From Candidatus Woesebacteria bacterium RBG_13_46_13 (GTDB lineage: Bacteria > Patescibacteriota > Microgenomatia > UBA8517): DNA of 64,000 bases. The notes below the pieces were generated by a model, which saw nothing but the letters and a program-made list of their open reading frames with translations, was not told where the DNA came from and ran no database searches. The translations under genes were made by a program, and so were the position numbers. Every line of letters starts with the position of its first letter. Position 1 is the first letter of the stretch. Where the stretch lies: positions 36,457 through 100,456 of the forward strand of contig MGFR01000002.1 in NCBI GenBank assembly GCA_001791995.1, given 5' to 3'. This document shows positions 4,521 to 26,009 of this stretch, one piece after another.

Positions 4521-4521
4521 A

Positions 4522-7348: not shown

Positions 7349-7935
7349 CCCCCAGAGACAGCTATCTCAGGCGTTTTCGTAAATACGGAGTTGACCCCAG
7401 GACGCTTAAGTGGCAAAGCCAAAAAGCCGCCGAGCAAAGATATTTGGAGATAACCACCCTTACGGATTTTAACGGAAAGTCTGTCTTGGATGTCGGCTGC
7501 GGTTTCGGGGATCTGGTAGCCTTCATTAATTCCAAAACCGAAAACTTCTCCTATACGGGGATAGACTTGATTAACGAGTTTATTTTAGCTGCCAGAAAAA
7601 AATATCCTGGCTTTAGCTTTGTCATGGGGGACTATTTTTCAGACCCCCTTGAGGAAAAATTCGACATCGTTGTTGCCAATGGGTCTCTAAACTCAAATGT
7701 CCCCGACAATTACGCTTTTAGGAAAAAAGCCATCAAAACAATGTTCGATCACGCAAGGCAAGCGGTTATCTTTAATATGGCAGGAGGGTTTGCTCCCAAA
7801 GAGACGGCCCGGGGAAGTAACGTGTTCTTTGCGGACGCTTCCAAGATAGTCGGATTTTGCGAAAGTCTTACCTCCTCAGTCGTTTTGACAGACCACCCCG
7901 GCCGGCGGGAATTTACCGTAATTATGGCCCGTTAG
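7336..7935 (+). CDS. Class I SAM-dependent methyltransferase
   Basis: Motif I VLDVGCGFGDL and downstream DIVVANGSL are typical of Rossmann-fold MTases. Overlaps the upstream ORF by 13 nt. Confidence 0.65.
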   Translation: MAEMTPRDSYLRRFRKYGVDPRTLKWQSQKAAEQRYLEITTLTDFNGKSVLDVGCGFGDLVAFINSKTENFSYTGIDLINEFILAARKKYPGFSFVMGDYFSDPLEEKFDIVVANGSLNSNVPDNYAFRKKAIKTMFDHARQAVIFNMAGGFAPKETARGSNVFFADASKIVGFCESLTSSVVLTDHPGRREFTVIMAR

Positions 7936-8282: not shown

Positions 8283-8333
8283 GTGCGCGGGATTATCCCG
8301 AAAGAGATGATTCCGCGCACGAAGTTTTTATTT
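8283..8333. terminator. Stem-loop (GTGCGCGG...CCGCGCAC) followed by a T-rich tract; probable terminator between convergent genes
   Basis: 8 bp GC-rich inverted repeat at 8283-8290 / 8313-8320, followed by GAAGTTTTTATTT. Lies between the stop of the 7987-8268 gene and the stop of rplL. Confidence 0.4.
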
Positions 8334-8729
8334 CAACTCCACTTTTGCTCCGGCTGCTGTTAGCTTATCGCTTGCAGCTTTTGCATCTTCCGCTTTTGCG
8401 TCCTTTAAAACCTCAGCCGGAAGAGTTTCGGTCATACCTTTTGCATCCATCAGAGTCAGGTTTTGATTGATTTCCCTAAGTGCTTTGATAACACCTATTT
8501 TATTTGCTCCTGCGTCCGTCATTACAACAGATTGGGTAGCTGCAGCTGTTGCGGCACCCGCTTCTGCTGCGGCTGGAGCTGCTGCCGGGGCTGCTGCGGC
8601 AACCGGCATCGCCGAGACTCCGAGTTTCTCCTGAAGTGTACTTACCAATTCCGAAAGTTCGATAACCGTAAGTTTGCCTATCTCTTCTGTCAATTCATCG
8701 ACTTTTTTGGTTTTTTTCTCTTCTGCCAT
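8328..8729 (-). CDS. rplL: 50S ribosomal protein L7/L12
   Basis: MAEEKKTKKVDELTEEIGKLTVIELSELV...AAAAPAAAPAAAEAG...KVELK has the classic L7/L12 N-terminal dimerisation domain, Ala/Pro hinge and C-terminal domain. The track ORF extends to a GTG at 8738; the ATG at 8727-8729 is preferred because it avoids overlap with rplJ. Confidence 0.9.
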   Translation of the reverse strand: MAEEKKTKKVDELTEEIGKLTVIELSELVSTLQEKLGVSAMPVAAAAPAAAPAAAEAGAATAAATQSVVMTDAGANKIGVIKALREINQNLTLMDAKGMTETLPAEVLKDAKAEDAKAASDKLTAAGAKVELK

Positions 8730-8730
8730 G

Positions 8731-9249
8731 TTACTCACCGCCTTTCGATTTTAAGATATAAATAAGTTTTTGCATGTTTCCCTCAAGGGTTCCGACCAAT
8801 CCGTAAGAGGGGGAGAGAAGTACTCCCAAGACCTGTCCCAAAAGCACATCTCTGCTGGGAAGGGTGGATATTTTAAGCAGGCTTTCGCTGTCCTGGAAGG
8901 CACCGTCAATTACTCCGACCTTGAGCTTGGGAACCTCGTATTCCTTTGCAAAGGTTCCAAGTATCTGTACCGGAGCAATGGCATCATCTTCACCAACGAC
9001 CAAAGCCGTCTGGCCGGAAAGAATCTCATCCTGGAGAATTTCGGGACTGACCCTAGCGGCTTCCCCCGCGCGTTTTAACAAGGTGTTTTTAACAACCAGC
9101 ATCTTGGCACCCACCTCTTTGAGTCTTCTTTTTAATTCCTGCTGGCTTTTGACGGACAGACCCTGATAATTAATAAGCACCACGGATTTAGCCGTCTTTA
9201 GCTCCTGGGTCAGGTTTTCGACAAAGAATATTTTTTCTGCCTTTTTCAT
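8731..9249 (-). CDS. rplJ: 50S ribosomal protein L10
   Basis: MKKAEKIFFVENLTQELKTAKSVVLINYQGLSV...; canonical rplJ-rplL order. Confidence 0.9.
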   Translation of the reverse strand: MKKAEKIFFVENLTQELKTAKSVVLINYQGLSVKSQQELKRRLKEVGAKMLVVKNTLLKRAGEAARVSPEILQDEILSGQTALVVGEDDAIAPVQILGTFAKEYEVPKLKVGVIDGAFQDSESLLKISTLPSRDVLLGQVLGVLLSPSYGLVGTLEGNMQKLIYILKSKGGE

Positions 9250-9261
9250 TTTGTTTGCATT

Positions 9262-9283
9262 AAAAAAGCGCCTTCGAGGCGCC
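9262..9283 (-). terminator. Intrinsic terminator / attenuator hairpin about 13 nt upstream of the rplJ start
   Basis: On the minus strand: GGCGCC-TCGAA-GGCGC (5-6 bp GC stem, 5 nt loop), immediately followed by TTTTTT, then AATGCAAACAAA ATG (rplJ). Confidence 0.45.
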
Positions 9284-9369
9284 TATATACAAGATACTTA
9301 TATACGCTTTTGCCTCGGCACGAATTATGGTTCGACTTGGCGCACCACGTGCTGTCTTGGGACAGAGAT

Positions 9370-9397
9370 ATTATAAATTAAAGGGGATTATTGTCAA
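9370..9397 (-). promoter_or_regulatory. Near-consensus sigma70-type promoter (TTGACA-16 nt-TATAAT) upstream of the rplJ leader
   Basis: Minus strand: TTGACA (9392-9397), ATAATCCCCTTTAATT spacer, TATAAT (9370-9375). Confidence 0.35.
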
Positions 9398-10146
9398 CCG
9401 TTAGCTTTGCCTTCACCCCGCAGAATCCTTAAAAAGGGAATTCTGTCGTACCAGCGTCTTTTAATCTCCTGCCCTCGGCTAATGGATTGCTTGGCGGCAA
9501 CTTGTTCAAGGGCTGGTGCGGGGGTTGCTGGGGGCTGGGTTTTGGTCTCAACCACCTGCCCGATGCCTCTTTGGGCTACCTGTTCGCGGTAGTCGGGGGC
9601 CGGCCTAACCGGGCCTTGCCTAACGGCGGTTTCGACATATTTGGGGGCAAGTCTGGTTTGCTCTCTTTTTAACCAGGAAGGGGCTGTTGCGGGGGCCTCT
9701 GTCGAGGTGGCGGTTGTCGGAAAGGTTTCCGTTTGTGAAGGCGTCTCGGCAGGAGGGGTAACCGGAGCTGGCGTTCTCCTTACAAAGACAGAAGGCGCTT
9801 GGGCTTTGGCATCGATTTCTTTTTGAGTATCCATTATTGCATTAAATCTTCTAACCCCCTCGTCTCTTATTCCGCTTTTGGCCTTAACCGCTTCCGGGGT
9901 CGTTCCCTCCCAGTTGGCCATGCTTGCGGCTAGTCTGTTGCGATCGGTTAAGGGCTCGAGTTTGTTCTCGGCCGTTATGGTATCGGACCCTTTAGCTTCC
10001 TCTTCCTGTCCGCCGCTTTTGGTCTTAACTTTTCCCGGGGTCGTTCCCTCCCAGTTGGCCATGCTTGCGGCTAGTCTGTTGCGATCGGTTAAGGGCTCAC
10101 GTTGATCCTCGGCCATGAGTATTATTCTAACAGGGGCAAAAGGCAA
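9394..10146 (-). CDS. Hypothetical Pro/Thr/Ala-rich protein with an internal duplicated 21-residue motif, inserted between rplA and rplJ
   Basis: 250 aa ORF filling the whole rplA-rplJ gap. The motif EPLTDRNRLAASMANWEGTTP occurs twice and is encoded by two 64 bp identical DNA repeats. The start may be the internal Met (MAEDQREPL). Confidence 0.5.
   Translation of the reverse strand: MPFAPVRIILMAEDQREPLTDRNRLAASMANWEGTTPGKVKTKSGGQEEEAKGSDTITAENKLEPLTDRNRLAASMANWEGTTPEAVKAKSGIRDEGVRRFNAIMDTQKEIDAKAQAPSVFVRRTPAPVTPPAETPSQTETFPTTATSTEAPATAPSWLKREQTRLAPKYVETAVRQGPVRPAPDYREQVAQRGIGQVVETKTQPPATPAPALEQVAAKQSISRGQEIKRRWYDRIPFLRILRGEGKANG
9894..9957. repeat. 64 bp direct repeat, copy 1 (intragenic)
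   Basis: CCGGGGTCGTTCCCTCCCAGTTGGCCATGCTTGCGGCTAGTCTGTTGCGATCGGTTAAGGGCTC is identical to the copy at 10035-10098. Confidence 0.85.
10035..10098. repeat. 64 bp direct repeat, copy 2 (intragenic)
   Basis: Exact copy of 9894-9957, 141 bp away, in the same reading frame of the 9394-10146 ORF. Confidence 0.85.
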
Positions 10147-10160
10147 GATACAACTCGGGG

Positions 10161-10955
10161 TTAGATTTTAACCTTGACTGAAGGGCCCATACTGGCTTTG
10201 GTGTAGGCTTTAACTATCTGTTTGTCTTTACCGAGTGCAGTCAATACTGCCTCGGCATTTGCGATTAGTTCCTTGTCCGGTTGGCTGACCTTACCGAAGA
10301 CGGTATGGATTAAGGGTGCTTCTTTTTCGGTTTTAACTGTAATGGCGTTGGCGGAGAAGGCCTTGGCTTTTTTCGGATCGGAAATTAAAGTCCCGTTTTT
10401 GGGATTGGGCATGAGTCCTTTGGGACCCAAAATCCTGGCAAAAGGAACCAACTTCGGCATCATTTCGGCCGTTGCCAAGAGAATATCGAAATCAATCTTG
10501 CCTTCCTTGAGTTTGGCGACAGTTGCCTCGTCTGCGATTTCTATCTTCTTTTCCTTTCCGGCCGAGTGGGGGAATTTGACGTTGGCGCTCACCCCAACCT
10601 TTTTTAGAACCAGATGCAACTCGAGTGAGCCGTCAAACTTGGAATATGAAGTTTCTTTGGCCAAATTGATCGCTTCGGGGAGCGGATAAAGAGTTATGGG
10701 GTTTATCTTGGTTTTTGCCTCCTGATATTTTTTGCCCCTGACCTTGGGAGCATTGACTTTTTTTTCCTTAGCCCCCCCTTCGGTTCCTTCGGCAGTCGTG
10801 GTTTCCGTAGGTAATGGTTCGGCCTCAATGGTTTTAATTCTTTGTCCACCCTTTAGCCCCGCAATATGAATTTTCTCCGGTTTTGCCGACTGTTTTTTGT
10901 GCTCTTTCTTTTCTTCTACCCCTTCGCCGATGAATGCTGTTTTGGTTTTGCCCAT
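10161..10955 (-). CDS. rplA: 50S ribosomal protein L1 with a K/E-rich N-terminal extension of about 70 aa
   Basis: PITLYPLPEAINLAKETSYSKFDGSLELHLVL...GPKGLMPNPKNGT is conserved L1 core. Adjacent to rplK. Confidence 0.9.
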   Translation of the reverse strand: MGKTKTAFIGEGVEEKKEHKKQSAKPEKIHIAGLKGGQRIKTIEAEPLPTETTTAEGTEGGAKEKKVNAPKVRGKKYQEAKTKINPITLYPLPEAINLAKETSYSKFDGSLELHLVLKKVGVSANVKFPHSAGKEKKIEIADEATVAKLKEGKIDFDILLATAEMMPKLVPFARILGPKGLMPNPKNGTLISDPKKAKAFSANAITVKTEKEAPLIHTVFGKVSQPDKELIANAEAVLTALGKDKQIVKAYTKASMGPSVKVKI

Positions 10956-10956
10956 T

Positions 10957-11385
10957 TTATCCTTCTATTTTTATTCCCATGGAACGGGCTGTTCCGGCAA
11001 CGATTTTCTTGGCCGCCTCAACGTTGTCGGTATTCAAATCTTTCATTTTCTCCTGGGCGATTTTCCCCAGTTGGGCATCGGTTAAGGTTCCCGCGGTTTC
11101 TTTGGGGGTAACCCCCGAGCCTTTTTCGATTCCCAACTCTTTTTTAATCATGTCCGCAACCGGGGCCAGTTTGGTGATAAATTCGAAACTTCTGTCTTCA
11201 TAAATGGTAATTACCGCCGGGACAGTGTTGCCCTTCATGGCTGCGGTTGCCTCGTTATATTGTTTGACAAACTCCATGATGGCAACCCCGTGCTGTCCCA
11301 ATGCGGGCCCCAATGGGGGAGCGGGCGTAGCTTCCCCTGCGGGAAGGTTGACCTTGATTACGGTTTTAACTTTTTTGGCTGCCAT
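10957..11385 (-). CDS. rplK: 50S ribosomal protein L11
   Basis: [44 protein letters not shown]... has the canonical L11 N-terminus. Confidence 0.9.
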
Positions 11386-16173: not shown

Positions 16174-16714
16174 TATAGGACTAATTATGAGCCCTGAACG
16201 AACTAATTATAACGGAATTCCCACAGGAATTGTCATTGAGAAAGCAGAATCTCCCGAAAGGCAGAAGATCCTAGCGGAGATAGTTAAGTATGGGATGGGC
16301 TTTTCCCGGGGGAAAATTCAGGATGCAAGCTCGATTTCTCTTCAGGTAGCCGCACAGCGACCCGTCTTTCTGGATTATCTTTCCTATATAATCTTCGGCA
16401 GGATAGTCAGGCTTTCAACCCAATGCCCGGAAGAGAAAAAAGAGGTGTGTATATCGGTAAAGTTTGCCCATGAGCTTGGAGAGTATATTAACCTCCAAGT
16501 TACTAAGTCTCGGAAAAACGGATTAAAGAGTGTGGATTTTACCCAAGAGGAAGGAAGAGTCATTGTTCAAAAATCCTTCGAACACATTAATGCAGATGCC
16601 ATTTTTGCACAGCTTAGCGAGTCGGAAATGAGTTTGGTCAGAAGGTTCGGTTCGACGATTATTCCTGATAATCCAAAGGCAGAGCAAAGACCCAGCGAAT
16701 TCCGCCTCGAATAA
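16166..16714 (+). CDS. Hypothetical protein
   Basis: 182 aa ORF, no recognisable motifs. Confidence 0.4.
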   Translation: MYNIGLIMSPERTNYNGIPTGIVIEKAESPERQKILAEIVKYGMGFSRGKIQDASSISLQVAAQRPVFLDYLSYIIFGRIVRLSTQCPEEKKEVCISVKFAHELGEYINLQVTKSRKNGLKSVDFTQEEGRVIVQKSFEHINADAIFAQLSESEMSLVRRFGSTIIPDNPKAEQRPSEFRLE

Positions 16715-16721
16715 ACCTCCT

Positions 16722-17396
16722 TTAGTGAACGGGGATGACGTTTTGAGAGTAGGTGTTGTTTCCCTCGTTTGATTCATCGACCCCATTGTCTACATCGGCA
16801 ATTGCCCTGGTGGTATAGTTTGCCCATCCTCCATAAGTGTAGTTACAGAAAACCGTTCTGGCTCCATGGGCGGGGATACTGGCAACGTTTGCCCTGCAGG
16901 CATAGGTTGGTGCCGAAATTGTAGCCCACCATTCCCAGTAAAAGTCTCCGGAGGCAACATTACCCTGGTTGGAAATTATTACGGTTAAGGTAAAAGCTTC
17001 TCCCATAACCGGAGGGTGATTGAAAGAGTAGCTGGAGATATAAAGGTCGGCGCGGTTGTCCGGAGTCGGAGTGGGTGTCGAAGTTGGTGTGGGCGAGGCA
17101 GTTGCGGTAGGTTTCTTGGTAGGGGAAAGGGTTGTTGTTTCCGTAGGCGTTTCGGTTACGCTAATCTCTGCCCCCTCAACGGTTGGAGTCGGAGTTATGT
17201 TTTCGGTTGAAACAGGGGTCTTTTTGGATGAGCCGAGAAAGAAAGCTACTCCTGCGATAATTACCAATACCAGAACAACAATGATTACAATTAAGGTTTT
17301 ATTTGTCGGGCCGGGTTTTGGATTTTCTTGGGGAGCGGGAATTACCTGTTCATCCTCCATTGCCAGGATAATAGAATGGATACAAGCCGAAGTCAA
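16722..17396 (-). CDS. Membrane-anchored surface protein with Thr/Pro-rich linker and CARDB-like C-terminal domain
   Basis: N-terminal TM (LIVIIVVLVLVIIAGVAFFL), then TPTPTVEGAEISVTETPTETTTLSPTKKPTATASPTPTSTPTPTP linker. The C-terminal segment ...ISNQGNVASGDFY...VDESNEGNNTYSQ resembles CARDB domains. Confidence 0.5.
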   Translation of the reverse strand: MTSACIHSIILAMEDEQVIPAPQENPKPGPTNKTLIVIIVVLVLVIIAGVAFFLGSSKKTPVSTENITPTPTVEGAEISVTETPTETTTLSPTKKPTATASPTPTSTPTPTPDNRADLYISSYSFNHPPVMGEAFTLTVIISNQGNVASGDFYWEWWATISAPTYACRANVASIPAHGARTVFCNYTYGGWANYTTRAIADVDNGVDESNEGNNTYSQNVIPVH

Positions 17397-17428
17397 GAGA
17401 GTATATTTTGTGGTAATATCTACTTGGT

Positions 17429-18475
17429 ATGCCTGCGAAAGCCAAGAAAACCCCCAAGGTCAAACTCCAGACGGATAAAGATGCCTTAAAAAAGCTTAAG
17501 TTGGTCGCCGTTGCCTATTCGCACGTCGAGCGTGAATGGTTTCCCACCGAGGATGCTTATACCGCGGAGGTAGAGGTCGAAGAGCGTGCCCAGGAGGTAA
17601 TCGAGGAAGTGCAAAAACTGGGGATAGAAGTGAAGGGCTACAAGGGCGACCAGTATTTTTTGACGAACCTCTTGGTGGATAAACCCGACTTGGTTATCAA
17701 TCTGGTCGATACGCTCCGGGGGAAGGATAGGCTGCAGACTTCGGTTCCGGCGGCTTTGGAACTTTCCAACATTCCCTATACCGGCGCAGGCATGGAGGGG
17801 CTGATTATCGGCAACAGCAGAAACCTGACAAAAAGGCTGTTTATCGCCTACGAAATTCCGACTCCCCAGTTTCAGTTTATTAGAAGGGCAGGGACCGCGG
17901 TTCTGGAGAGCTTGGGCCTGCCTTTAATCGTAAAACTCAACGAAAGCGGGGGATCAGTGGGAATAGATAACAACGCAGTTAAAGAAACCTTAAAAGACGC
18001 CCAGAAAAAGGTAGACGACATGATATCGGCTTATAAAATACCGGTGGTGGTCGAAAGATTTATCGACGGACCGGAAATTACGGTTGTGGTTTTTGACGAC
18101 GGGGTAAAAAAGCAGGTGTTTATGGGCGAGAAGATTTTCAGGAAGAAGCCCGACGGAAAGCACTTCTTTACCAGTATTGAGTCCTACGACGATTTCGATT
18201 CCTACAGATACAAATTTGTGGCGGAGCCTCTGCAGGGGAAAATTGCGACTCTTGCGGTCAGGGCCTTTAACGGACTGCACCACAAAGACTATGCCAAGTT
18301 CGATATCAGGGTAGAGGAGACAACCGGTATTCCGTATTTTACCGACAGCAATCCCAATACCGCTTTCGGACCGGATAAGGGTCTGCCCATGACCGAGGTA
18401 ATGAATTTATATGGAATTGCCTTCCAAGATACCCTGACCAGCATGTTATCCAAATATGCAAAAACTCTTCAGTAA
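17429..18475 (+). CDS. D-alanine--D-alanine ligase-family ATP-grasp enzyme with N-terminal extension
   Basis: LPLIVKLNESGGSVGI (Ddl-like ATP-binding strand), ...DIRVEETTGIPYFTDSNPNTAFGP... (Ddl-like C-terminal motif), GPEITVVVFDDG. Divergent from canonical ddl at the N-terminus. Confidence 0.65.
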   Translation: MPAKAKKTPKVKLQTDKDALKKLKLVAVAYSHVEREWFPTEDAYTAEVEVEERAQEVIEEVQKLGIEVKGYKGDQYFLTNLLVDKPDLVINLVDTLRGKDRLQTSVPAALELSNIPYTGAGMEGLIIGNSRNLTKRLFIAYEIPTPQFQFIRRAGTAVLESLGLPLIVKLNESGGSVGIDNNAVKETLKDAQKKVDDMISAYKIPVVVERFIDGPEITVVVFDDGVKKQVFMGEKIFRKKPDGKHFFTSIESYDDFDSYRYKFVAEPLQGKIATLAVRAFNGLHHKDYAKFDIRVEETTGIPYFTDSNPNTAFGPDKGLPMTEVMNLYGIAFQDTLTSMLSKYAKTLQ

Positions 18476-19055
18476 CCCTTATTTCCCGGAACTTTCAAGA
18501 GTTACCCAGATAACCTCGTCGCACTGCGGACCGGCGACCCTGGAGATGCTTTTGGGCTTTTTGGGTATCGAAGTTGATCAGGAGGCGATTGTGGAGACAA
18601 CGGGGGTTGGCCAAAAGCTGCCTGTTCACGGCATGATAATCTCCGAGATGGGGGAGGCCGTCAGGAAGCTGGCTCCCCAAGTGCAGTTTTGGTTTAAGGC
18701 CAATTCCAGCTTAAACGAGTTAAGCCAGTTGGTAAGAAATTATAAATACCCTGTAGGAATAGAATGGCAAGGGGTCTTTTACGAGGATGCGGATGATGAC
18801 AACGGACACTACAGCGTGATTACCCATATCGACACAACCAACAATATCATTATGGTTGCCGACCCCTACAAGCGCTTTGCTGGAACCGACAGAATTTTCC
18901 ACATTCTGGAGTTTGAGGACAGATGGTGGGACGAAAACGAGATTAAGGACCCCTATACGGGAAAGGTAAGCCAGGAGAGAGATTATCACATGATGTTTGT
19001 GATTACCCCCAAACAAGAAAATTTTCCCGAAACTTTTGAGATGATACGGGGTTAG
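18456..19055 (+). CDS. Papain-fold cysteine peptidase-like protein (C39-like / BtrH-N-like)
   Basis: QITSSHCGPATLEMLL has Gln, then Cys-Gly in the nucleophile position, and a downstream GHYSVITHID candidate catalytic His. Overlaps the preceding ATP-grasp gene by 20 nt, suggesting translational coupling. Confidence 0.5.
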   Translation: MQKLFSNPYFPELSRVTQITSSHCGPATLEMLLGFLGIEVDQEAIVETTGVGQKLPVHGMIISEMGEAVRKLAPQVQFWFKANSSLNELSQLVRNYKYPVGIEWQGVFYEDADDDNGHYSVITHIDTTNNIIMVADPYKRFAGTDRIFHILEFEDRWWDENEIKDPYTGKVSQERDYHMMFVITPKQENFPETFEMIRG

Positions 19056-19058
19056 CCC

Positions 19059-19376
19059 CTAGCGGAAAAGGATCAGAAGAACCACGGTTAAAATTCCGAA
19101 GAAGAGAAGCCAGGCGGTAGTTGCCAGAACAACCCGAATGGCTTTTTTGGTTTCTTTTTTCTCCCACCACAGGAGAAACGGATAATACCCGAAAAGAAGC
19201 GTACAGATAATTACCGAAAGAACAAAGATTAGAAGGAAGAGGGTCGGCCCCAGGAAATTATCCATGTTACCGAAGATGGAATTTCCGCCCCACATCAGAA
19301 GACCGATCAAGCCCACATATACGGCTAATCCTAAGGCCTGAAGAAAAGCGATAAATTCCAGCGATAGTTTTTTCAT
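19059..19376 (-). CDS. Small membrane protein (3 TM helices)
   Basis: 105 aa hydrophobic ORF. Confidence 0.4.
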   Translation of the reverse strand: MKKLSLEFIAFLQALGLAVYVGLIGLLMWGGNSIFGNMDNFLGPTLFLLIFVLSVIICTLLFGYYPFLLWWEKKETKKAIRVVLATTAWLLFFGILTVVLLILFR

Positions 19377-19424
19377 TGCCCCTTTAATTATACAGAGTCA
19401 TATCAACTCGTCTATGTTATACGG

Positions 19425-20321
19425 TTATCTTCGGGAACGAACAAGAAACGCAATTGATGCCAGCAAGAGTATTCCTGCTGATGCAATTATTGCGGCGGAC
19501 TTAAAAGGTGAGCTTGGGGTTGGGGGAGTTATTGTGACTTCGCGGGTTATCTTTTCAGAGACGGTTGGCGTCGGGGAGGAGGTTATAACTGGCTTTTGTG
19601 TCGGAGTGGGTGAGTTTACGGCAAGAGCGGCTTTTGCCGATAATTCATTAGAGATCGGTCCAAGGGTGCACCCGTTTCCCGGAATCACTATAAAATAGTA
19701 AATTACACCGGTACCAAGACTTCCTACCGTATACGAGGTGGTGTTTGCTCCTCCAACGTTGGGGTTGCCAAAAATATAAGTTCCCTTTTTCGTTCCGTAA
19801 TAAACGGTATAAAAAGTTACAGGGTCGGTTGCCTTCGTCCAGGTGAGTTTGATCTGGGAATTAGATATCGGAGTTGCCGAGACAAGTTTAGGAGGGCCAC
19901 CCGGGGCGGCGTCGGTGCAGGTGGTGGAATAAAAAGTCACGTGTCCGATTCCCGGGAGGGCAACGTTCTGGGTTTTATCGACGATATCGAGCGAATCGAC
20001 TCCTTCCTTGGTCGATTTGATGTAAAAAACTGCCTTACCCGAGCTATCGAGCTTGTTTGATTCAGGAGCGACTATAGCCGAGGGATCATCTGTCACCACA
20101 ACGCTTACTTCCTCTCCTGCCAGGGGAGTGCCGTAGGCATCCTTCACAGTAACGGTTAATACCGCCTCGGTTTTCCCATCGGCCGGTACTCTATCGGAGC
20201 CGGACATCGTAGCTACGATACTGGAACTATGAAAATCAGGAGAATTGTAAGCTGCCGTCCATTTGGAAAAAGCAAAAAAGAAAGCAAGAAAAAGAAAGGC
20301 TATTAATAATATTTTTCTCAT
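19425..20321 (-). CDS. Secreted/cell-surface protein with Ig-like/FN3-like beta domains and C-terminal TM anchor
   Basis: N-terminal signal (MRKILLIAFLFLAFFFAFS). Beta-rich repeats (TVTVKDAYGTPLAGEEVSVVVTD; KLTWTKATDPVTFYTVYYG is FN3-like). C-terminal SAAIIASAGILLLASIAFLVRSRR anchor. Confidence 0.5.
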   Translation of the reverse strand: MRKILLIAFLFLAFFFAFSKWTAAYNSPDFHSSSIVATMSGSDRVPADGKTEAVLTVTVKDAYGTPLAGEEVSVVVTDDPSAIVAPESNKLDSSGKAVFYIKSTKEGVDSLDIVDKTQNVALPGIGHVTFYSTTCTDAAPGGPPKLVSATPISNSQIKLTWTKATDPVTFYTVYYGTKKGTYIFGNPNVGGANTTSYTVGSLGTGVIYYFIVIPGNGCTLGPISNELSAKAALAVNSPTPTQKPVITSSPTPTVSEKITREVTITPPTPSSPFKSAAIIASAGILLLASIAFLVRSRR

Positions 20322-20385
20322 ATATTTATTATAGACAGGTACCCTGAGAGGGTGAAGTATTGAAGGCAGTAATTCTGAAGTTGGC

Positions 20386-20482
20386 AGGCCTTAGTATCCG
20401 AACTTCGAACAATTTGGCACGAAGTGAGCTCGTTTGACATAAACAAAATGCGAGGATTTATAAATCCTCACCCAGTTTTTGC
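20386..20482. repeat. Island intergenic repeat, full copy 1 (core A ACTTCGAACAATTTGGCAC, core B AATCCTCACCCAG)
   Basis: About 80% identical to 22264-22362. Core B lies about 60 nt upstream of the start of the 20538 gene. Confidence 0.6.
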
Positions 20483-20537
20483 TTAAAGATATAAATTGCA
20501 TTAGAATCGCCTGGCTAGTAAATTAAAAAAAGAGCGT

Positions 20538-21194
20538 ATGAAAGCCATTTTGGGAAGAAACAAACAACTTATGGATGTTTTTCTAGATTTAGACCCACTA
20601 CCTGTCAATAATACTGATGAGGAAGTCGGTAGGAGTTTTTTATTTAGATTTCGACCTAATTTAGCAAACATTGGAAAACGAACGAAGCAAATAAAAAGGA
20701 TTGGGATGGCATACGATACCCCAAGTGTTGCGATGTACGATCAAGCAAAAGATCTTTATAGTCTCGGATATTTTGTCTCTTCAATAATAGTTTGTAGGTC
20801 TACTGCAGAATATTTGGCGTTTGAGATATTTCTTGAGGAGGTTGAGCTGGAAGGTAAAACGGAGATTATAGAGTCAGTAGCGGAGAGTTTAGATTTTAGA
20901 AAAGTAGTTAACGAGTTTCTTTATAATCCAAAAAAAGGTTTTGCGTATATTAACAAGGACACGCACGACATATTTAATAATCTTTATTCATTGGCTAACA
21001 ATTGGGTTCATCCTAGAAAGATCAAGGATAAGGTTAAAATCGAAAAAGTTGCATTTAAGTCACTGGAAATGCTAGGTTCTTTACTTTCATCTCTTCGAGA
21101 TGTGATGAAAGATTATAAAGTTGTTAAAGGTTCACTAGTAAGGAAAGCTACTGCAAGAAAGAAAGTTAGGCCAATTATTTTGGGACACAAGTAA
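20538..21194 (+). CDS. Hypothetical protein (AT-rich island)
   Basis: 218 aa ORF in a low-GC segment, no family recognised. Confidence 0.45.
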   Translation: MKAILGRNKQLMDVFLDLDPLPVNNTDEEVGRSFLFRFRPNLANIGKRTKQIKRIGMAYDTPSVAMYDQAKDLYSLGYFVSSIIVCRSTAEYLAFEIFLEEVELEGKTEIIESVAESLDFRKVVNEFLYNPKKGFAYINKDTHDIFNNLYSLANNWVHPRKIKDKVKIEKVAFKSLEMLGSLLSSLRDVMKDYKVVKGSLVRKATARKKVRPIILGHK

Positions 21195-21204
21195 ACAGAA
21201 TAAG

Positions 21205-22197
21205 TTAGAGCCCGAGGAGAAGCAGCTTACTTGGATCTAATTGTTCAACAAAATGATATTCCCCAGTTTTTCCGTCCTTCAGCTTATATGTAATTTTTTC
21301 GGAATTACGAACAGTCATTGAACCCAACATTACAATTTTGCCATCAATTATGGTCCCTATATGTCCGGTTGGGAATAATAGACCGTTTTGACTAACAATT
21401 GCGGCCAAAATGTGACCTCCAACGGTTGCAAACTTGTATTTTATGCTCTCTTTGTTTACGAAGCTCATCAATGTTTCGGCATCCTTGTACATTACCGACT
21501 CCAAGTTCACCGCATTTCTTTCCCCGAATTCAAGCTCTGAAAGTAAAAGGGGTGGGACAACGACCGTTACAGACTTTTGATTTGGATGAAAAGCGACATA
21601 AGAATACAAAGGCACCTCATTTTTTACAAAAGTACAGTTCCTAACATCAATTTCCAGCGTAATCATTCTCGTTTGGGGATAGTCTATTTCAACATACATA
21701 CCTTTTGTTAATTGGCCGTTATTTTTTGACATTGCATTTACAAGACCATCAATTATGTCCTGGTCGATTGATTGGTGCATATGGGTGCCTTCACCCCTCG
21801 CTTTTAAGGGATTAGACATATTGTTTCCTAGAATTGAGCTTTCTATGGTTTGCTTTTTAGTTGGGTTAAAACCTGCGATTATGAGGGCGACATTTCCATA
21901 CCTTCCTGTCGAATTGACGTATTCACTTATTATAGTTTTTAGATCAGTGTCAATAATACTTTCGAGCTCATCAAAAGAAGAACTCTCTTTAATTTTAGAT
22001 TTGAGGTCATTTAGTATAAAAGAAGCAGGGGCAGCGTCTCCGGCTTCAAGAGCATCGATTTGATGGTTGAGCACGAATGCTTTTATCAAATCATCATCAT
22101 ATTTATCTGGTCTACCATCCGAGTATCGAGTTGTGGCTCTAGTATCAGAAACAAGAAACATTTTCTTGGCCAGATGAACCCCCAGAATCAGTGACAT
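21205..22197 (-). CDS. Hypothetical protein (AT-rich island); N-terminus uncertain
   Basis: The track ORF runs to 22311 but its 5' end overlaps the conserved intergenic repeat. An internal Met (MSLILGV... or MFLVSD...) is more likely the start. Confidence 0.4.
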   Translation of the reverse strand: MSLILGVHLAKKMFLVSDTRATTRYSDGRPDKYDDDLIKAFVLNHQIDALEAGDAAPASFILNDLKSKIKESSSFDELESIIDTDLKTIISEYVNSTGRYGNVALIIAGFNPTKKQTIESSILGNNMSNPLKARGEGTHMHQSIDQDIIDGLVNAMSKNNGQLTKGMYVEIDYPQTRMITLEIDVRNCTFVKNEVPLYSYVAFHPNQKSVTVVVPPLLLSELEFGERNAVNLESVMYKDAETLMSFVNKESIKYKFATVGGHILAAIVSQNGLLFPTGHIGTIIDGKIVMLGSMTVRNSEKITYKLKDGKTGEYHFVEQLDPSKLLLLGL

Positions 22198-22263
22198 TTG
22201 ACAGATTATAGCATTCCAAATTAAGCACGGGGGACGAGGACTACGTACACTGAATGTGAGGGC

Positions 22264-22362
22264 GGGCCTTAGTATATCAACTTCGAACAATTTGGCACAA
22301 GATGAGCTCATTTGATGTAGATAAAGTCCAACAATTTCTTAATCCTCAACCAGCAATTGCTT
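22264..22362. repeat. Island intergenic repeat, full copy 2
   Basis: GGCCTTAGTATATCAACTTCGAACAATTTGGCACAAGATGAGCTCATTTGATG...TTTCTTAATCCTCAACCAGC. Core B is 48 nt upstream of the 22401 gene. Confidence 0.6.
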
Positions 22363-22400
22363 ACAATTAACCGGCAATATAGAATTTAGGCATCGCTAAA

Positions 22401-22793
22401 ATGAAAAGATTGTCCCCAAATGAAAAATGGAACAGATTTAATAAAAAACTAGAGGAGTTGATGAAATCGAATGATTTTTATGGTTTGGGAGTAATTTATC
22501 AGGAAATGGCCAACTTCTTAAATAATGAAGGGAAAGATTCCAAAGAAATGCTTAATAAAGCCCATGAGATGAAGCTCACACATCACAGAAATTATATAAA
22601 GAATTTACGATACGATTCTCCAATCTGTGTAGGGGTTGAGGTTCGTTGCACAGATGATAGTTGTAGAAGCTGTAAAAGCTTGCAAGGTAAAGTTTTTGAT
22701 TTTGATAAAGCCATAGAGACAAATCCTTTACCTGTTAGAAATTGTAGCCATGAATATGGTTGCAGGTGTGTTTATCTTCCTGTAGCTAATTGA
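22401..22793 (+). CDS. Hypothetical protein with Cys-rich C-terminus (possible zinc ribbon)
   Basis: 130 aa; the C-terminal segment ...CVGVEVRCTDDSCRSCKSLQGKV...CSHEYGCRCVYLP carries several Cys pairs. Confidence 0.45.
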   Translation: MKRLSPNEKWNRFNKKLEELMKSNDFYGLGVIYQEMANFLNNEGKDSKEMLNKAHEMKLTHHRNYIKNLRYDSPICVGVEVRCTDDSCRSCKSLQGKVFDFDKAIETNPLPVRNCSHEYGCRCVYLPVAN

Positions 22794-22807
22794 GTGGAGA
22801 AAGGTCA

Positions 22808-22835
22808 AGAGTTTCTTAATCCTCGGCCAGCCTTC
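22808..22835. repeat. Island intergenic repeat, half copy (core B only: TTTCTTAATCCTCGGCCAGCC)
   Basis: 40 nt upstream of the 22869 gene. Confidence 0.5.
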
Positions 22836-22868
22836 GGTCTTACCTAATTTCTGATAAAATATGGCTGT

Positions 22869-23390
22869 ATGAAGATGGATCAGCTGATAGACAAGAAGAA
22901 GTTGAAACATCCAGACTTTTGGTTTGTTAAGGCACACGCATACGCTTCAGCATGCCTTTTTATATTAGAAGAATTTTCCAGGGCGATTAAAGACAAAGAC
23001 GGGGAGAATAGGACTAGACTAAAAGAAGTTACTCTTAGCCTCTCTTCCGTTGGGGCAACTCCCTATTTAGTCGGAATTTCTAGCGAATTGTATATGAAGG
23101 GGTACTTAATATCTAAAGGAGAAAAACCTGACGCGCTAAAGAGGGTAGGTCACAACTTAAAAACCATTAGAGAAAAATGTGCAACTTTTGGAGACCCGAG
23201 GTTTAATGATAAAGACCTAATCTTTCTTGCCGATACTCTTGGCAAATATTTGATGGAGGATGGGGGAGTTAGATATCCAGATAAAAATGACTTACCTATT
23301 TATATACCAATTTTTAAAAACATTTTAAATATGTTTCATAAATTAAGTATTGAAGTGTCAGACACCCCTGCTAAAGGAGAAGATACTTGA
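22869..23390 (+). CDS. Hypothetical protein (AT-rich island)
   Basis: 173 aa, predicted helical, no confident family. Confidence 0.45.
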   Translation: MKMDQLIDKKKLKHPDFWFVKAHAYASACLFILEEFSRAIKDKDGENRTRLKEVTLSLSSVGATPYLVGISSELYMKGYLISKGEKPDALKRVGHNLKTIREKCATFGDPRFNDKDLIFLADTLGKYLMEDGGVRYPDKNDLPIYIPIFKNILNMFHKLSIEVSDTPAKGEDT

Positions 23391-23392
23391 TT

Positions 23393-23440
23393 TAAATAGT
23401 TCCACTTCGAACAATCTGGTGCAGGATAAGCCTTGAGATG
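23393..23440. repeat. Island intergenic repeat, half copy (core A-like: CACTTCGAACAATCTGGTGCAGGATAAGCC)
   Basis: Similar to the first half of the full copies. Confidence 0.45.
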
Positions 23441-23579
23441 GGGAAGATACAATAATTTCTAGGTTCAACATATGTTTCAATAACGATAACCAGCAACTAA
23501 ACTGGGTGAAATTCAAATATTTATTTCAAATGGAACCAATGTTTTTTCAAGTTATGATAAATCTTTATAGACTAGATAT

Positions 23580-24497
23580 TTAATATTTCTTAAAATCAGT
23601 AAGTCTTTCAAAAATCTTTTCCATAGCCTCAGCAAAAGTACCAGAAATAGGAATAGTATTTCCGCTCCTGCCAGAACTAGTATTCCATTCTTCAAACTTT
23701 TGTTTATCACCCACATAGAAAATGTTCGCATGGGTTTCTCTTAGAGGATCCCATATATGATAATCTTGTGGGTAAGGCTTTACTCCCACAATTATTACTT
23801 GTTTTACATTGAGTATTAGATTTTTCCACTCCTTTTGGATATGCTCAATAAAATCAAAACCTAATGGAGCCGGTTTATTCTCTGTAAAAAGAGCCATTAC
23901 TGGATACAAAGGGGTATCACTAGTTAATTTTTCAGTTACTTTTTCGGGGGTGTTTAGTGAGTATATTGGCGCTTTTATTCGCATATCTGAACTAAAATTG
24001 ACATACCTATTCATTCCCTCAAAATCGAGGAACCAGTTGCATGAACCATGAAGTTTTATAAGTAATATACCTCCTTTATTGGGGGGAATAAGATAATTTG
24101 TTTTAAAACCATTTCTAGTAAGTTCTCCGTCAAGCAAGCAATCATAATTAAGTGTTGATAGTATTGTGTCATCGCTTTTTATCTTAATAAGATATTTAAT
24201 AATCTCACCATATCGGGTTTCATTTTTTGGAGTGAATCTATTAAAGTAAATACCTAATTGTTGGAGCAATAAAGAAGATATATCGCTGTGTTTTTTCCAT
24301 AATGAGTCCATACCTTTTTCAAAATTTTGCAAAAATAAAGTATTGAGATCTTCTGGCAGCTTTCCCCAGGTGTCCGGAAACGTAGAAACTAATATAGAGT
24401 GAAGTTCTCCTCCCAATGGAGGTTGATGGGGAAAAATGTCCCCGCAGTCATGACTTGCACCAGCACCAAATAAAAATACGGTATTAATCTTACCCAT
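23580..24497 (-). CDS. SIR2-like domain protein (SIR2_2 / DUF4020-type NAD-binding fold), standalone
   Basis: N-terminal VFLFGAGASHDCGDIFP matches the SIR2_2 signature (LFxGAGxS...G.P), and LIKLHGSCNW supplies the HGS motif. 305 aa, no fused effector or sensor domains. Confidence 0.6.
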   Translation of the reverse strand: MGKINTVFLFGAGASHDCGDIFPHQPPLGGELHSILVSTFPDTWGKLPEDLNTLFLQNFEKGMDSLWKKHSDISSLLLQQLGIYFNRFTPKNETRYGEIIKYLIKIKSDDTILSTLNYDCLLDGELTRNGFKTNYLIPPNKGGILLIKLHGSCNWFLDFEGMNRYVNFSSDMRIKAPIYSLNTPEKVTEKLTSDTPLYPVMALFTENKPAPLGFDFIEHIQKEWKNLILNVKQVIIVGVKPYPQDYHIWDPLRETHANIFYVGDKQKFEEWNTSSGRSGNTIPISGTFAEAMEKIFERLTDFKKY

Positions 24498-24675
24498 TTT
24501 AAGCCCGCCTCGTTCATCAAGTATCCAGGTACATGTCCAAATACCATGGAAATCTACTTAAAATTCTCTTCGCCCTTGACTTTTCTATATAATATCACTT
24601 GAGGCTAGCAGGGGCTAGAAACTATGTAGGGAACTTTTTCAAGGTTGAATTTCACCAAGTTGATATGATTTATTA

Positions 24676-24906
24676 ATGAAGTGCTATTATATGAGTAAGA
24701 TGAAAAAGGAATCTGTAATAGGAATCCTAATATTGTTGGGTTTGGTTTATTGGTTTGCGATTAGACCATCAAACATAAGAAGCCATTGTCACAATCTTGC
24801 TGATGAAAACGCAAGAATTTGGGCAACGTCGGTAAAGGATGGTAAGGAAAGTGAAATATATGACCGTTCACTGGAAAAGTGCATCAATGAAAAAGGATTG
24901 AGGTAA
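24676..24906 (+). CDS. Small secreted/membrane-anchored protein
   Basis: 76 aa with an N-terminal hydrophobic segment (SVIGILILLGLVYWFAI) and two Cys. Confidence 0.3.
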   Translation: MKCYYMSKMKKESVIGILILLGLVYWFAIRPSNIRSHCHNLADENARIWATSVKDGKESEIYDRSLEKCINEKGLR

Positions 24907-25021
24907 GAGGCTTCATCCGCCCAGATAAGAAACTTCTATTATCTAAAAGCACCACCTTCGGGTATGCACCGTAGTATAATTATCTTGTAGGTAAAGAGAG
25001 TTCTCTAAGTAAAAGAAGGGA

Positions 25022-25237
25022 TTGAGGATGATCGGTACTAAAGTTATCTTAACAGTATTATTTAATGTTGCGGGTATTGTAATTATCGCTTGGGGTATGT
25101 TCAACGACAAAATTTGGGTTATGGCAGTCGGCGGTGCGCTTACGGGCATAGTAATTGGGCTTATGTACGACGACTTGTTAGGTCAGATTAGGGATGTGAA
25201 GATTGACGAAGAAGAGGAAGAAGAGGAGGACCAGTGA
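25022..25237 (+). CDS. Small 2-TM membrane protein with poly-Glu C-terminal tail
   Basis: 71 aa; ...KIDEEEEEEEDQ. Confidence 0.35.
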   Translation: MRMIGTKVILTVLFNVAGIVIIAWGMFNDKIWVMAVGGALTGIVIGLMYDDLLGQIRDVKIDEEEEEEEDQ

Positions 25238-25247
25238 GGAGCTACCA

Positions 25248-25451
25248 ATGAAAGAGGATGAAATTAAAAAAGAAAAAAAGAAGTTAAATAAGTATTTTAT
25301 ATTCTTTTTGATATCTACGGTTGGGTCAATGGTTCTCGGAGATGATAGCCAACTAGGTATGATATTTTCGGCGTTATCACTCATTTCTTTAATTGTTTTA
25401 ATTGCAAAAGGGGTTGACTACAAGAGGAAAGTTAACGAAATAAAAAAGTAG
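25248..25451 (+). CDS. Small membrane protein (start uncertain; track ORF begins at 25203)
   Basis: A lysine-rich N-terminus followed by two hydrophobic helices. Confidence 0.3.
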   Translation: MKEDEIKKEKKKLNKYFIFFLISTVGSMVLGDDSQLGMIFSALSLISLIVLIAKGVDYKRKVNEIKK

Positions 25452-25456
25452 TCCTG

Positions 25457-25527
25457 CAGGGGCGGAGAGAATCGAACTCCCATTGCGGGTTTTGGAGACC
25501 CGCGTCCTACCATTGAACGACGCCCCT
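25457..25527 (-). tRNA. trnW: tRNA-Trp (anticodon CCA)
   Basis: Reverse complement: AGGGGCG TC GTTCAATGGTAGGAC G CGGGT CTCCAAA ACCCG CAAT GGGAG TTCGATT CTCTC CGCCCCT G. The acceptor stem pairs, the anticodon loop is CU-CCA-AA, and the T-loop is TTCGATT. Confidence 0.85.
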
Positions 25528-25565
25528 AGACAAGCGCAATTATACCAATTTTTGGGTTTGGATGC

Positions 25566-25742
25566 TTATTTCAGCTTCGAGGATTCTTTATGGGGGGTAA
25601 CCTTCCGGCAGGTTCTGCAGTACTTGTTAAGCAGCAGCTTCTTTTCTTCCATGTTGATCTTGTTCCTTTCGGTAAGATAGTTCTGGTTCTTACAGACGGA
25701 ACAAAGCAAGGCTACATGTTCTCGCGCACCTTTTTTTGCCAT
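25566..25742 (-). CDS. rpmG: 50S ribosomal protein L33
   Basis: Manual translation gives MAKKGAREHVALLCSVCKNQNYLTERNKINMEEKKLLLNKYCRTCRKVTPHKESSKLK, 58 aa, with the CxxC...CxxC L33 zinc ribbon. Missing from the ORF track (under 60 aa). Confidence 0.8.
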   Translation of the reverse strand: MAKKGAREHVALLCSVCKNQNYLTERNKINMEEKKLLLNKYCRTCRKVTPHKESSKLK

Positions 25743-25784
25743 ACGTTGCGTATTTTACCTAAAGCAGGCTCTCTAAACAATAGG

Positions 25785-25856
25785 GAGCCGAGGGTGGGAA
25801 TCGGACCCACGACCTAGTCATTACCAATGACTTGCTCTACCACTGAGCCACCTCGG
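25785..25856 (-). tRNA. tRNA-Thr (anticodon GGT)
   Basis: Reverse complement: GCCGAGG TG GCTCAGTGGTAGAGC A AGTCA TTGGTAA TGACT AGGTC GTGGG TTCGATT CCCAC CCTCGGC T. Acceptor and anticodon stems pair; anticodon GGT. Confidence 0.85.
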
Positions 25857-26009
25857 CGCATGAGAATTATATCAAAAACTTGCTATACTCAAAGAAATGA
25901 GCCGTACCCAAGCCCTGCTTCTGATTCTTGCCGCAGCCTTCTTTATTGTCCTGATCTACGTTGTCAGCCACCTTACGGCCTTTGGCCCTTCGGGAGTCTT
26001 CAAATAGGG

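Follow-up and report, generated by a model that had tools for sequence, protein, structure and literature searches.

A conserved two-gene module for a Ddl-fold ATP-grasp ligase and a papain-fold cysteine enzyme in Microgenomates

Two overlapping open reading frames, ORF1 and ORF2, are located on the forward strand of contig MGFR01000002.1 from Candidatus Woesebacteria bacterium RBG_13_46_13 (assembly GCA_001791995.1), within a stretch of 64,000 nt (positions 36,457–100,456 of the contig) that was analyzed as a whole and is designated here the window. An earlier note on this DNA, made from its sequence alone, had proposed that they encode a Ddl-like ATP-grasp ligase of 348 aa, outside of any mur or fts context, and a C39- or BtrH-like cysteine enzyme, with a 20 nt overlap between the genes. 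The layout is as described there: the ATG of ORF2 (18456) is inside the end of ORF1, whose TAA occupies positions 18473–18475 (Table 1). A scan of positions 16600–20500 found no terminator-like site between both genes, with promoter and terminator counts within ~1.5 standard deviations of the shuffle expectation. Also as noted before, genes for surface proteins flank the pair on the opposite strand, one with a CARDB domain and the other with Big_1 and fn3 domains.

Table 1. Coordinates of the gene pair, its main residues and motifs, and other genes (positions in the window, unless preceded by a locus)
Feature	Position	Strand	Basis or remarks
ORF1, Ddl-fold ATP-grasp ligase, 348 aa, ATG start	17429-18475	+	ORF list, Pfam, NCBIfam, AlphaFold2, Foldseek
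Lys-rich N-terminal extension of ORF1, residues 1-24	17429-17500	+	composition, alignment, AlphaFold2
Glu34 codon, candidate equivalent of Ddl Glu15	17528-17530	+	invariant in family; manual ERE-motif alignment to E. coli DdlB
Lys169 codon, ATP-binding lysine (DdlB Lys144)	17933-17935	+	invariant across 51 aligned Ddl-like sequences
Lid (omega-loop-like) segment of ORF1, residues 238-255, RKKPDGKHFFTSIESYDD	18140-18193	+	invariant in family; alignment
D306-S-N308-P-N-T-A-F-G-P-D-x-G-L-P motif of ORF1, with Mg-binding Asp/Asn	18344-18388	+	alignment
Overlap of ORF1 end and ORF2 start, 20 nt, ATGCAAAAACTCTTCAGTAA	18456-18475	+	coordinates
ORF2, stand-alone putative papain-fold cysteine enzyme (Peptidase_C39_2 family), 199 aa, ATG start	18456-19055	+	ORF list, Pfam
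Gln18 (oxyanion hole) to His23-Cys24 (nucleophile) of ORF2, Q-I-T-S-S-H-C-G-P	18507-18527	+	conservation, modeled secondary structure
Acidic loop of ORF2, E110-D-A-D-D-D-N, then Gly117-His118 (catalytic His)	18783-18809	+	conservation
Asp136-Pro137 of ORF2, third catalytic residue, right after strand 131-135	18861-18866	+	conservation, modeled secondary structure
CARDB protein gene	16722-17396	-	Pfam
Membrane ORF, 105 aa, between ORF2 and Big_1+fn3 gene	19059-19376	-	
Big_1+fn3 protein gene	19425-20321	-	Pfam
Example of ~430 aa protein replacing the C39-like partner	L088:9024-10328		alignment A4
7TM_transglut membrane protein	3636-4520	+	ATP-grasp cluster 3636-7935
ATPgrasp_ST ("sugar-transfer associated" ATP-grasp)	4522-5808	+	E-value 1.6e-67
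RimK-like ATP-grasp	5805-6716	+	ATP-grasp cluster 3636-7935
ORF of no assigned family	6713-7348	+	ATP-grasp cluster 3636-7935
S-adenosylmethionine methyltransferase	7336-7935	+	ATP-grasp cluster 3636-7935

In a Pfam scan, ORF1 matched Dala_Dala_lig_C (PF07478; E-value 1.6e-16, 60.9 bits for a cut-off of 24), as anticipated from its ATP-grasp motifs, and showed no match to PF01820, the N-terminal domain of Ddl. Scores with the NCBIfam Ddl models were 93.1 bits for PRK01372, the best one (cut-off 243), and 85.4 bits for TIGR01205 (cut-off 245.65), and those with all the Van ligase models ranged from 21 to 43 bits, for cut-offs of 495–775. That is, ORF1 has neither the curated score nor the two Pfam halves of a Ddl. 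An AlphaFold2 model (predicted local distance difference test, pLDDT, 92.5) displays the three-domain fold of Ddl, and its top Foldseek matches were DdlB and DdlA, with 17–22% identity and a query-based template modeling score (TMq) of 0.72–0.76 (for DdlB 8evz, E-value 1e-21, TMq 0.76 and target-based score, TMt, 0.84). The best 120 of 1490 homologs of the ORF1 family are 74–95% identical. The first 24 residues correspond to the lysine-rich, non-canonical extension that had been pointed out, with nine Lys/Arg and two Asp/Glu, and no similar extension occurs in the canonical Ddl proteins of Microgenomates. Its K/E-rich part is variable in the family, with ~14–80 aa in most loci, and a conserved motif, K-x-K-L-x-x-D-K-D/E-A-L-K-K-L, is found ahead of the first strand; in the model, pLDDT is 62 for residues 1–10 and 95 for residues 11–20, with a helix at 19–22. 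Neither ORF1 nor ORF2 has a signal peptide or a hydrophobic segment (highest Kyte-Doolittle means over 19 residues of 1.32 and 1.06, respectively), and both products are therefore probably cytoplasmic, judging from their sequences.

We aligned the ORF1 family with five canonical Ddl proteins from Microgenomates, using as reference the residues of E. coli DdlB. The canonical proteins retained all of E15, H63, S150, K215, Y216, R255, S281, and L282. The ORF1 family, in turn, keeps the residues for ATP and Mg (K169, E209, E216, D292, D306, and N308) as well as Tyr253, equivalent to DdlB Tyr216, whereas R255 is replaced by Lys, H63 by R/K97, S150 by G175, and K215 by S252. The second-substrate site of Ddl, E-x-N-T-x-P-G...S281-L282, is occupied by the motif starting at D306, with an invariant D316-x-G-L-P in the place of S281-L282. 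Likewise, the lid carries Ser252 and Tyr253 at the positions of Lys215 and Tyr216 and an insertion of ~4 residues, and its pLDDT (77–79) is below that of the rest of the model, as expected of a mobile lid. Glu15 of Ddl holds the first substrate, the first D-Ala, by its amino group. Its candidate equivalent is Glu34, invariant in the family, although the canonical sequences are gapped in this column and the equivalence was set by hand. Relative to this DdlB reference, ORF1 thus lacks the full set of D-Ala-binding and catalytic residues of Ddl. In summary, ORF1 shares with Ddl and Van ligases the three-domain fold, the ATP/Mg residues and the equivalents of Glu15 and Tyr216, but it differs from them in its low identity (17–28%), in scores below every curated cut-off, in its additional Lys-rich N-terminus and in its coexistence with a true Ddl. 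Rather than a canonical D-Ala-D-Ala ligase, ORF1 is a member of a very conserved, Microgenomates-specific family.

This coexistence bears on the simplest alternative, namely that ORF1 is the housekeeping D-Ala-D-Ala ligase of the organism and its C39 neighbor is incidental. ORF1 does have the Ddl fold, public pipelines (JGI, NCBI) name members of its family "D-alanine-D-alanine ligase," and neither another ddl or Ddl-like ORF nor, in agreement with the earlier note, mur or fts genes were found in the window by Pfam on 20 large ORFs and by phmmer with DdlB; genes for MreB and PBP2 are within it, at 30978–33620. Nevertheless, the score of 93 bits for a cut-off of 243, the unmatched PF01820, the replacement of the hallmark residues H63, S150, K215, and S281, and a nearly obligate linkage to a thiol hydrolase, which is foreign to Ddl, all argue against it. 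Additionally, in two Shapirobacteria species (loci L051 and L052) the contig bearing the pair also contains a true Ddl, with both PF01820 and PF07478 and scores of 334 and 345 bits, respectively, and true homologs with both Pfam halves are recorded from Shapirobacteria, Woesebacteria, and other Patescibacteria. The housekeeping reading is hence largely excluded. One of the canonical Ddl matches is titled "Candidatus Methanoperedens." The Ddl-like cluster representatives of a 50% library were also considered as canonical references, but they were not used because none of them was above the Ddl cut-offs.

Scores above the Pfam cut-offs were obtained for ORF2 with Peptidase_C39_2 (PF13529; E-value 2.9e-8, 34.8 bits for a cut-off of 24) and Peptidase_C39 (PF03412; 4.3e-7, 30.3 bits for a cut-off of 22), whereas the score with Phytochelatin was below it (16.2 bits, E-value 0.0061, cut-off 24.9). 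The deduced product has the motif QITSSHCGPATLEMLL at the N-terminus and, downstream of an acidic loop (YEDADDDN), the motif GHYSVITH. Residues His23, Cys24, Pro26, Gly117, His118, and Asp136-Pro137 were invariant in 36 homologs (42–72% identity), in which Gln18, E110, D113, and D115 were conserved in at least 90%; in relatives, the acidic loop enlarges to up to 21 acidic residues. In the model (pLDDT 92.3), Cys24 heads a helix (24–35) and His118 begins a strand (117–126), in the canonical arrangement. ORF2 therefore combines gathering scores for C39 and C39_2 with the Gln/Cys/His/Asp set on a papain scaffold, and is predicted, from conservation and modeling, to be a complete papain-fold thiol enzyme; the C39-like Gln/Cys/His arrangement suspected at the outset is thus well founded. 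A sequence search against PDB retrieved matches only to Alr0975, near the nucleophile.

The distribution of the pair was examined with one genome per GTDB species, resulting in 80 loci, or 81 with the window. All 80 loci are Microgenomates-like, although some records bear other submitter labels; L081 is on the closed Woesebacteria chromosome CP066686.1. Many records of metagenome-assembled genomes with the pair (e.g., L010, L016, L017, L054, L058, L077) carry one of the titles "uncultured Gammaproteobacteria," "Pseudomonadales," "Chloroflexi," "Spirochaetia," and "Paceibacterota," apparently placeholders or an erroneous taxonomy given by the submitters. A C39-like gene is immediately 3′ of the ATP-grasp gene, in the same strand, in 69/80 loci by hidden Markov model (HMM) searches and in 74/81 by BLAST clustering, and the next commonest neighbor families (NusG, GDP-mannose dehydratase, RNase HII, and others) reach at most 22–24 of the 81 loci. 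The immediate upstream neighbor of the ligase gene is highly varied, and the genes for surface proteins of the CARDB and Big_1/fn3 types, proposed before as a hint of cell-envelope chemistry, are not among the conserved neighbors in the 81 loci. Ligase and C39 genes overlap in 35 of 70 loci, and the others have gaps, mostly of 6–81 nt. In 22/70 related loci the overlap is again of exactly 20 nt, so the arrangement is not due to chance.

Mean column identity across the clade is 74% for the ligase and 48% for its C39-like partner; likewise, L051 and L052 are 84% identical in the ligase, 65% in the C39-like protein and 59% in the true Ddl. A 524 aa ORF from a soil metagenome (P0242) contains both domains fused, first the ATP-grasp and then the C39. 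More distant relatives of the ligase (P0245, P0246, P0250; 35–40% identity) have as neighbors a FolC/Mur-ligase-like gene, a gene with no family assigned or a tandem ATP-grasp, and none of the three has an adjacent C39 gene, indicating that the pairing is specific to the strict ORF1 family. Thus, ORF1 and ORF2 constitute a self-contained, Microgenomates-specific operon of two genes, often translationally coupled. Members of the pair appear in public databases as "hypothetical protein," "ATP-grasp domain-containing protein," "Peptidase C39 domain-containing protein," or, misleadingly, "D-alanine-D-alanine ligase," and literature searches for ATP-grasp and C39 pairing in the candidate phyla radiation (CPR) retrieved nothing specific.

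Known systems also combine these types of enzymes. GspSA and TryS, the glutathionylspermidine and trypanothione synthetase-amidases, are fusions of an ATP-grasp C:N ligase and a papain-like cysteine amidase that make and hydrolyze the same small-molecule amide (PMC2427367). As in them, an ATP-grasp and a papain-like enzyme are joined here, by adjacency in 74/81 loci and by a single fusion (P0242). However, GspSA/TryS have an N-terminal CHAP amidase and a GSP_synth-type ligase, whereas here a Ddl-type ligase comes first, followed by a C39_2-type enzyme, and CHAP and GSP_synth were unmatched in the Pfam scan of the pair. Because the domain families differ, GspSA/TryS are, by analogy, the closest functional counterpart, which the pair would resemble in its working, but not members of the same family.

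The best sequence-family and fold matches of ORF2 are C39/C39_2 and PeiR, a pseudomurein endoisopeptidase, which have in common with it the Gln-Cys-His-Asp arrangement with the Cys at the N-terminus of a helix. ORF2 differs in its conserved acidic loop, which precedes the catalytic His, and in the R-W-W-D-E-N motif of its C-terminal beta-hairpin region. Its likeness to the phytochelatin synthase (PCS)-like protein Alr0975 is restricted to structure and to local sequence similarity, with Pfam Phytochelatin below cut-off. Classical C39 domains are the N-terminal part of ABC exporters and cleave double-glycine leaders; on the contrary, ORF2 is stand-alone, soluble and without a secretion signal, and no transporter, precursor or double-glycine substrate gene is conserved near the pair in the 81 loci. 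This weakens the idea that the pair participates in the maturation of peptides that are made by the ribosome and modified after translation (RiPPs), as an ATP-grasp macrocyclase of the graspetide type plus a C39 leader peptidase. Such a combination is known from graspetide/microviridin clusters; yet the ATP-grasp is here Ddl-like, rather than RimK/MdnC-like, and the distribution and conservation of the module are those of a housekeeping function, leaving this as the least probable of all the readings considered.

In BtrJ/BtrH and CtaD/CtaG, an ATP-grasp enzyme is partnered with a papain-fold transacylase (PMC7183216), and the earlier note had compared the pair to the first of these systems. 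Of that comparison, the pairing of ligase and C39-like enzyme is sustained by their co-occurrence, but not the butirosin-type chemistry, in which an aminoacyl chain would be loaded or extended by the ATP-grasp on a carrier protein, from which the papain-fold enzyme would pass it to an acceptor. Neither BtrH_N (PF14399) nor PF11814 had a Pfam match at E-value ≤0.1, and in the fold comparison with ORF2 CtaG was in rank 20, behind C39, PeiR and PCS-like structures, so the resemblance to BtrH is weak. Furthermore, no carrier-protein or pyridoxal phosphate decarboxylase gene is conserved beside the pair in the clustering of neighbors from the 81 loci, which did not include a dedicated PP-binding HMM scan; the ATP-grasp is of the Ddl type; and the pair is nearly universal in genomes of ~1 Mb, unlike the usual distribution of secondary-metabolite clusters. 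A thiotemplated pathway of the butirosin/closthioamide type is consequently very unlikely.

The composition of the module varies in certain lineages. Six of the seven loci without a C39 gene (L020, L024, L032, L045, L083, L088) have in its position a gene for a protein of ~430 aa, with an invariant G-C-Q and conserved motifs of the types HxEED, GY..H, and Gx-N-E. Four of the six proteins matched the NCBIfam model C45_proenzyme ("C45 family autoproteolytic acyltransferase/hydrolase"; best E-value 8.6e-6), with nothing significant in Pfam except for one weak, sub-threshold AAT match, and a PDB sequence search with the profile of the family gave as best match an unrelated protein, with an E-value of 0.04. 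From these sequence matches, they are probably an undescribed branch of the N-terminal nucleophile cysteine hydrolases. As they hold the C39 position in six loci, the thiol partner of the ligase appears to be interchangeable with an unrelated, C45-like family of cysteine hydrolases/acyltransferases. A ~180 aa protein of no matched family (motifs SAHFD...DNFAG) is encoded after the C45-like gene in L020, L024, and L045, as is an S66 LD-carboxypeptidase in L083. Neighbor cluster 9, initially a candidate for the C45-like family, is actually a membrane protein of the major facilitator superfamily type.

Additionally, loci of the Collierbacteria type have a GNAT domain (Acetyltransf_3) N-terminally fused to the C39 domain (L013, L014, L016, L019, L026, L041, L054), a stand-alone GNAT gene just upstream of the ligase gene (L013, L016, L036, L041, L054, L059, L062, L063), or both, assignments that were checked with Pfam in L013 only. 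In ~12 loci (L029, L042, L069, L070, L071, L073, L075, L082, L084, L087, L089, L024) a second Ddl-like ATP-grasp of ~330–370 aa, absent from the window, follows the C39 gene, mostly directly; the four that were scored had 161–197 bits for a Ddl cut-off of 243.

Four loci from Shapirobacteria contain a murF-like gene immediately upstream of the ATP-grasp gene; the complete row in L052 is a divergent canonical ddl followed by alr, murF-like, ATP-grasp, and C39, and the murF-like genes of the pair-bearing loci L052, L031, and L028 score 156–215 bits for a murF cut-off of 288.6. Another reading is one in which the ATP-grasp makes an alternative dipeptide, D-Ala-D-X, or puts a branch residue on the peptidoglycan stem and the thiol enzyme acts as VanX or VanY, taking away the normal dipeptide or the terminal residue, so that precursors are remodeled as in the Van systems. 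The Van models scored far below their cut-offs, however, the lysine of the Ddl/Van catalytic lid is lost in the ORF1 family, no VanH- or VanT-like partner was seen, and the mur context is limited to a single lineage; we regard this Van-like role, which is a particular case of the interpretation favored below, as improbable. Separately, three loci without the pair have canonical ddl and a ~400 aa murF-like gene between rplJ-rplL and rplA-rplK-nusG-secE (L090:7587-10855, L091:2800-6068, L092:8790-10867), with alr between ddl and the murF-like gene in L090 and L091. The equivalent slot of the window (within 8328–11385) has a 250 aa ORF (9394–10146, reverse strand) with no match in a PDB sequence search.

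The interpretation that we favor, tentatively and with a probability of about 0.4, is that the pair consists of a ligase and a thiol hydrolase or transferase that work on a short peptide, perhaps one of the D-Ala or peptidoglycan-stem type. The substrate phosphorylated by ORF1, at its carboxylate, would resemble an amino acid and have its amino group free, for which the equivalent of Glu15 is kept, and ORF1 would join it to an amine or other nucleophile different from the D-Ala used by Ddl, the second-substrate site and the lid being rebuilt. ORF2 would bind a short peptide of the same kind as a thioester, followed by hydrolysis (in turnover, editing or as an opposing activity) or by acyl transfer. 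In the cytoplasm, both enzymes together would make, and then break or transfer, a short peptide or amide of non-ribosomal origin, with no carrier protein, following a logic like that of GspSA/TryS or of glutathione synthetase plus PCS-like enzymes. As to the class of substrate, peptides of the D-Ala or peptidoglycan-stem type would be the most likely. Direct support exists for the folds, for the catalytic residues and their conservation, for the non-identity with Ddl and for the conserved linkage; a common substrate for both enzymes, its class, and the direction, hydrolysis or transfer, of the second reaction are inferred. We lean to a small peptide because of the accessory GNAT, second ligase, C45-like, and S66 proteins, the likeness of ORF2 to a glutathione-cleaving enzyme and to a cell-wall isopeptidase, and the alr-murF context in Shapirobacteria.

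Several observations weigh against this interpretation. The P0242 fusion is a singleton on one 2.2-kb contig and, for this reason, suggestive only, and the C45 assignment is based on weak scores. The adjacency of mur genes is limited to one lineage (4/81 loci), and it may reflect an old, ancestral proximity as much as function, because ddl, alr, and murF occur elsewhere near rplA-rplK-nusG-secE, a cluster that in the window is itself ~5 kb from the pair. Lastly, the conservation of the ligase (74% clade mean; 84% for 59% in the true Ddl) suits a macromolecular partner equally well or better.

This last point leads to the main rival, in which a conserved protein receives one or more amino acids from the ATP-grasp enzyme, at its C-terminus or on a side chain, and the papain-fold enzyme takes them off or first exposes the acceptor end. 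Precedents are RimK, acting on ribosomal protein S6, and tubulin-tyrosine ligase (TTL), acting on tubulin, with vasohibin as the remover. The ligase is extraordinarily conserved and has a Lys-rich tail, and both traits would agree with a protein substrate. Conversely, the closed three-domain Ddl fold, with an equivalent of Glu15 to bind a free alpha-amino group, is less suited to it; the C45-like swap and the S66, GNAT and second Ddl-like ligase genes suggest small substrates; and no candidate substrate gene is conserved nearby in the 81 loci. An electrostatic coevolution of the Lys-rich N-tail of the ligase with the acidic loop of the C39-like protein was also considered and rejected, as their charges do not covary (rho 0.12, p 0.37), and the correlation between their lengths is weak (rho 0.32) and probably phylogenetic. 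We thus consider modification of a protein tail rather unlikely, and retain a short peptide as the preferred substrate.

Other features of the window were also noted. Antisense ORFs within the ATP-grasp and C39 genes (17804–18283, reverse strand, in the window, and equivalents; clusters 2, 3, 18, 19, and 23) were discarded as genes, since they look like conserved families only because the sense genes are so strongly conserved. Another ATP-grasp cluster, unrelated and with genes that overlap or abut (Table 1), looks like a separate predicted peptide-modification system. Positions 20500–26000 form an island of low GC content (0.36–0.40, vs. ~0.48 in the surroundings), which breaks the synteny seen in relatives between the pair and an M50/fmt/def/Wzy_C-TPR/MreB block; five of its ORFs (20538–24497) were unmatched in Pfam except for a sub-threshold, proteasome-like hit in 21205–22311, and it is possibly an inserted mobile or defense island.

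As a more specific and rather doubtful proposal, the pair, with the occasional second ligase and GNAT, might build and turn over a low-molecular-weight peptide particular to the Microgenomates. This peptide would be equivalent in function to glutathione, trypanothione or phytochelatin, or else would be a new branch of the peptidoglycan stem; the Ddl-like enzyme would be its synthetase, and the role of transpeptidase or amidase would fall to the PCS/C39-like or C45-like enzyme. If so, this would be an unrecognized core metabolite pathway of a major CPR clade, hidden under the annotation "D-alanine-D-alanine ligase." As the family receives this name in spite of not being Ddl and of coexisting with a true Ddl, metabolic reconstructions of CPR bacteria and counts of "van-like resistance genes" (e.g., PMC8651080) may be inflated or wrong. 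The pair also extends the logic of an ATP-grasp enzyme with a cysteine acyl-enzyme, as in GspSA/TryS, BtrJ/H, and CtaD/G, to a ligase of the Ddl type whose partners are C39_2 or C45 enzymes and which has no carrier, and, being two small soluble proteins, it is a directly testable system. Few proteins of this clade, with its genomes of ~1 Mb, are as conserved as the ATP-grasp enzyme, which is nearly always tied to a thiol hydrolase, so the pair is probably central to the physiology of these bacteria.

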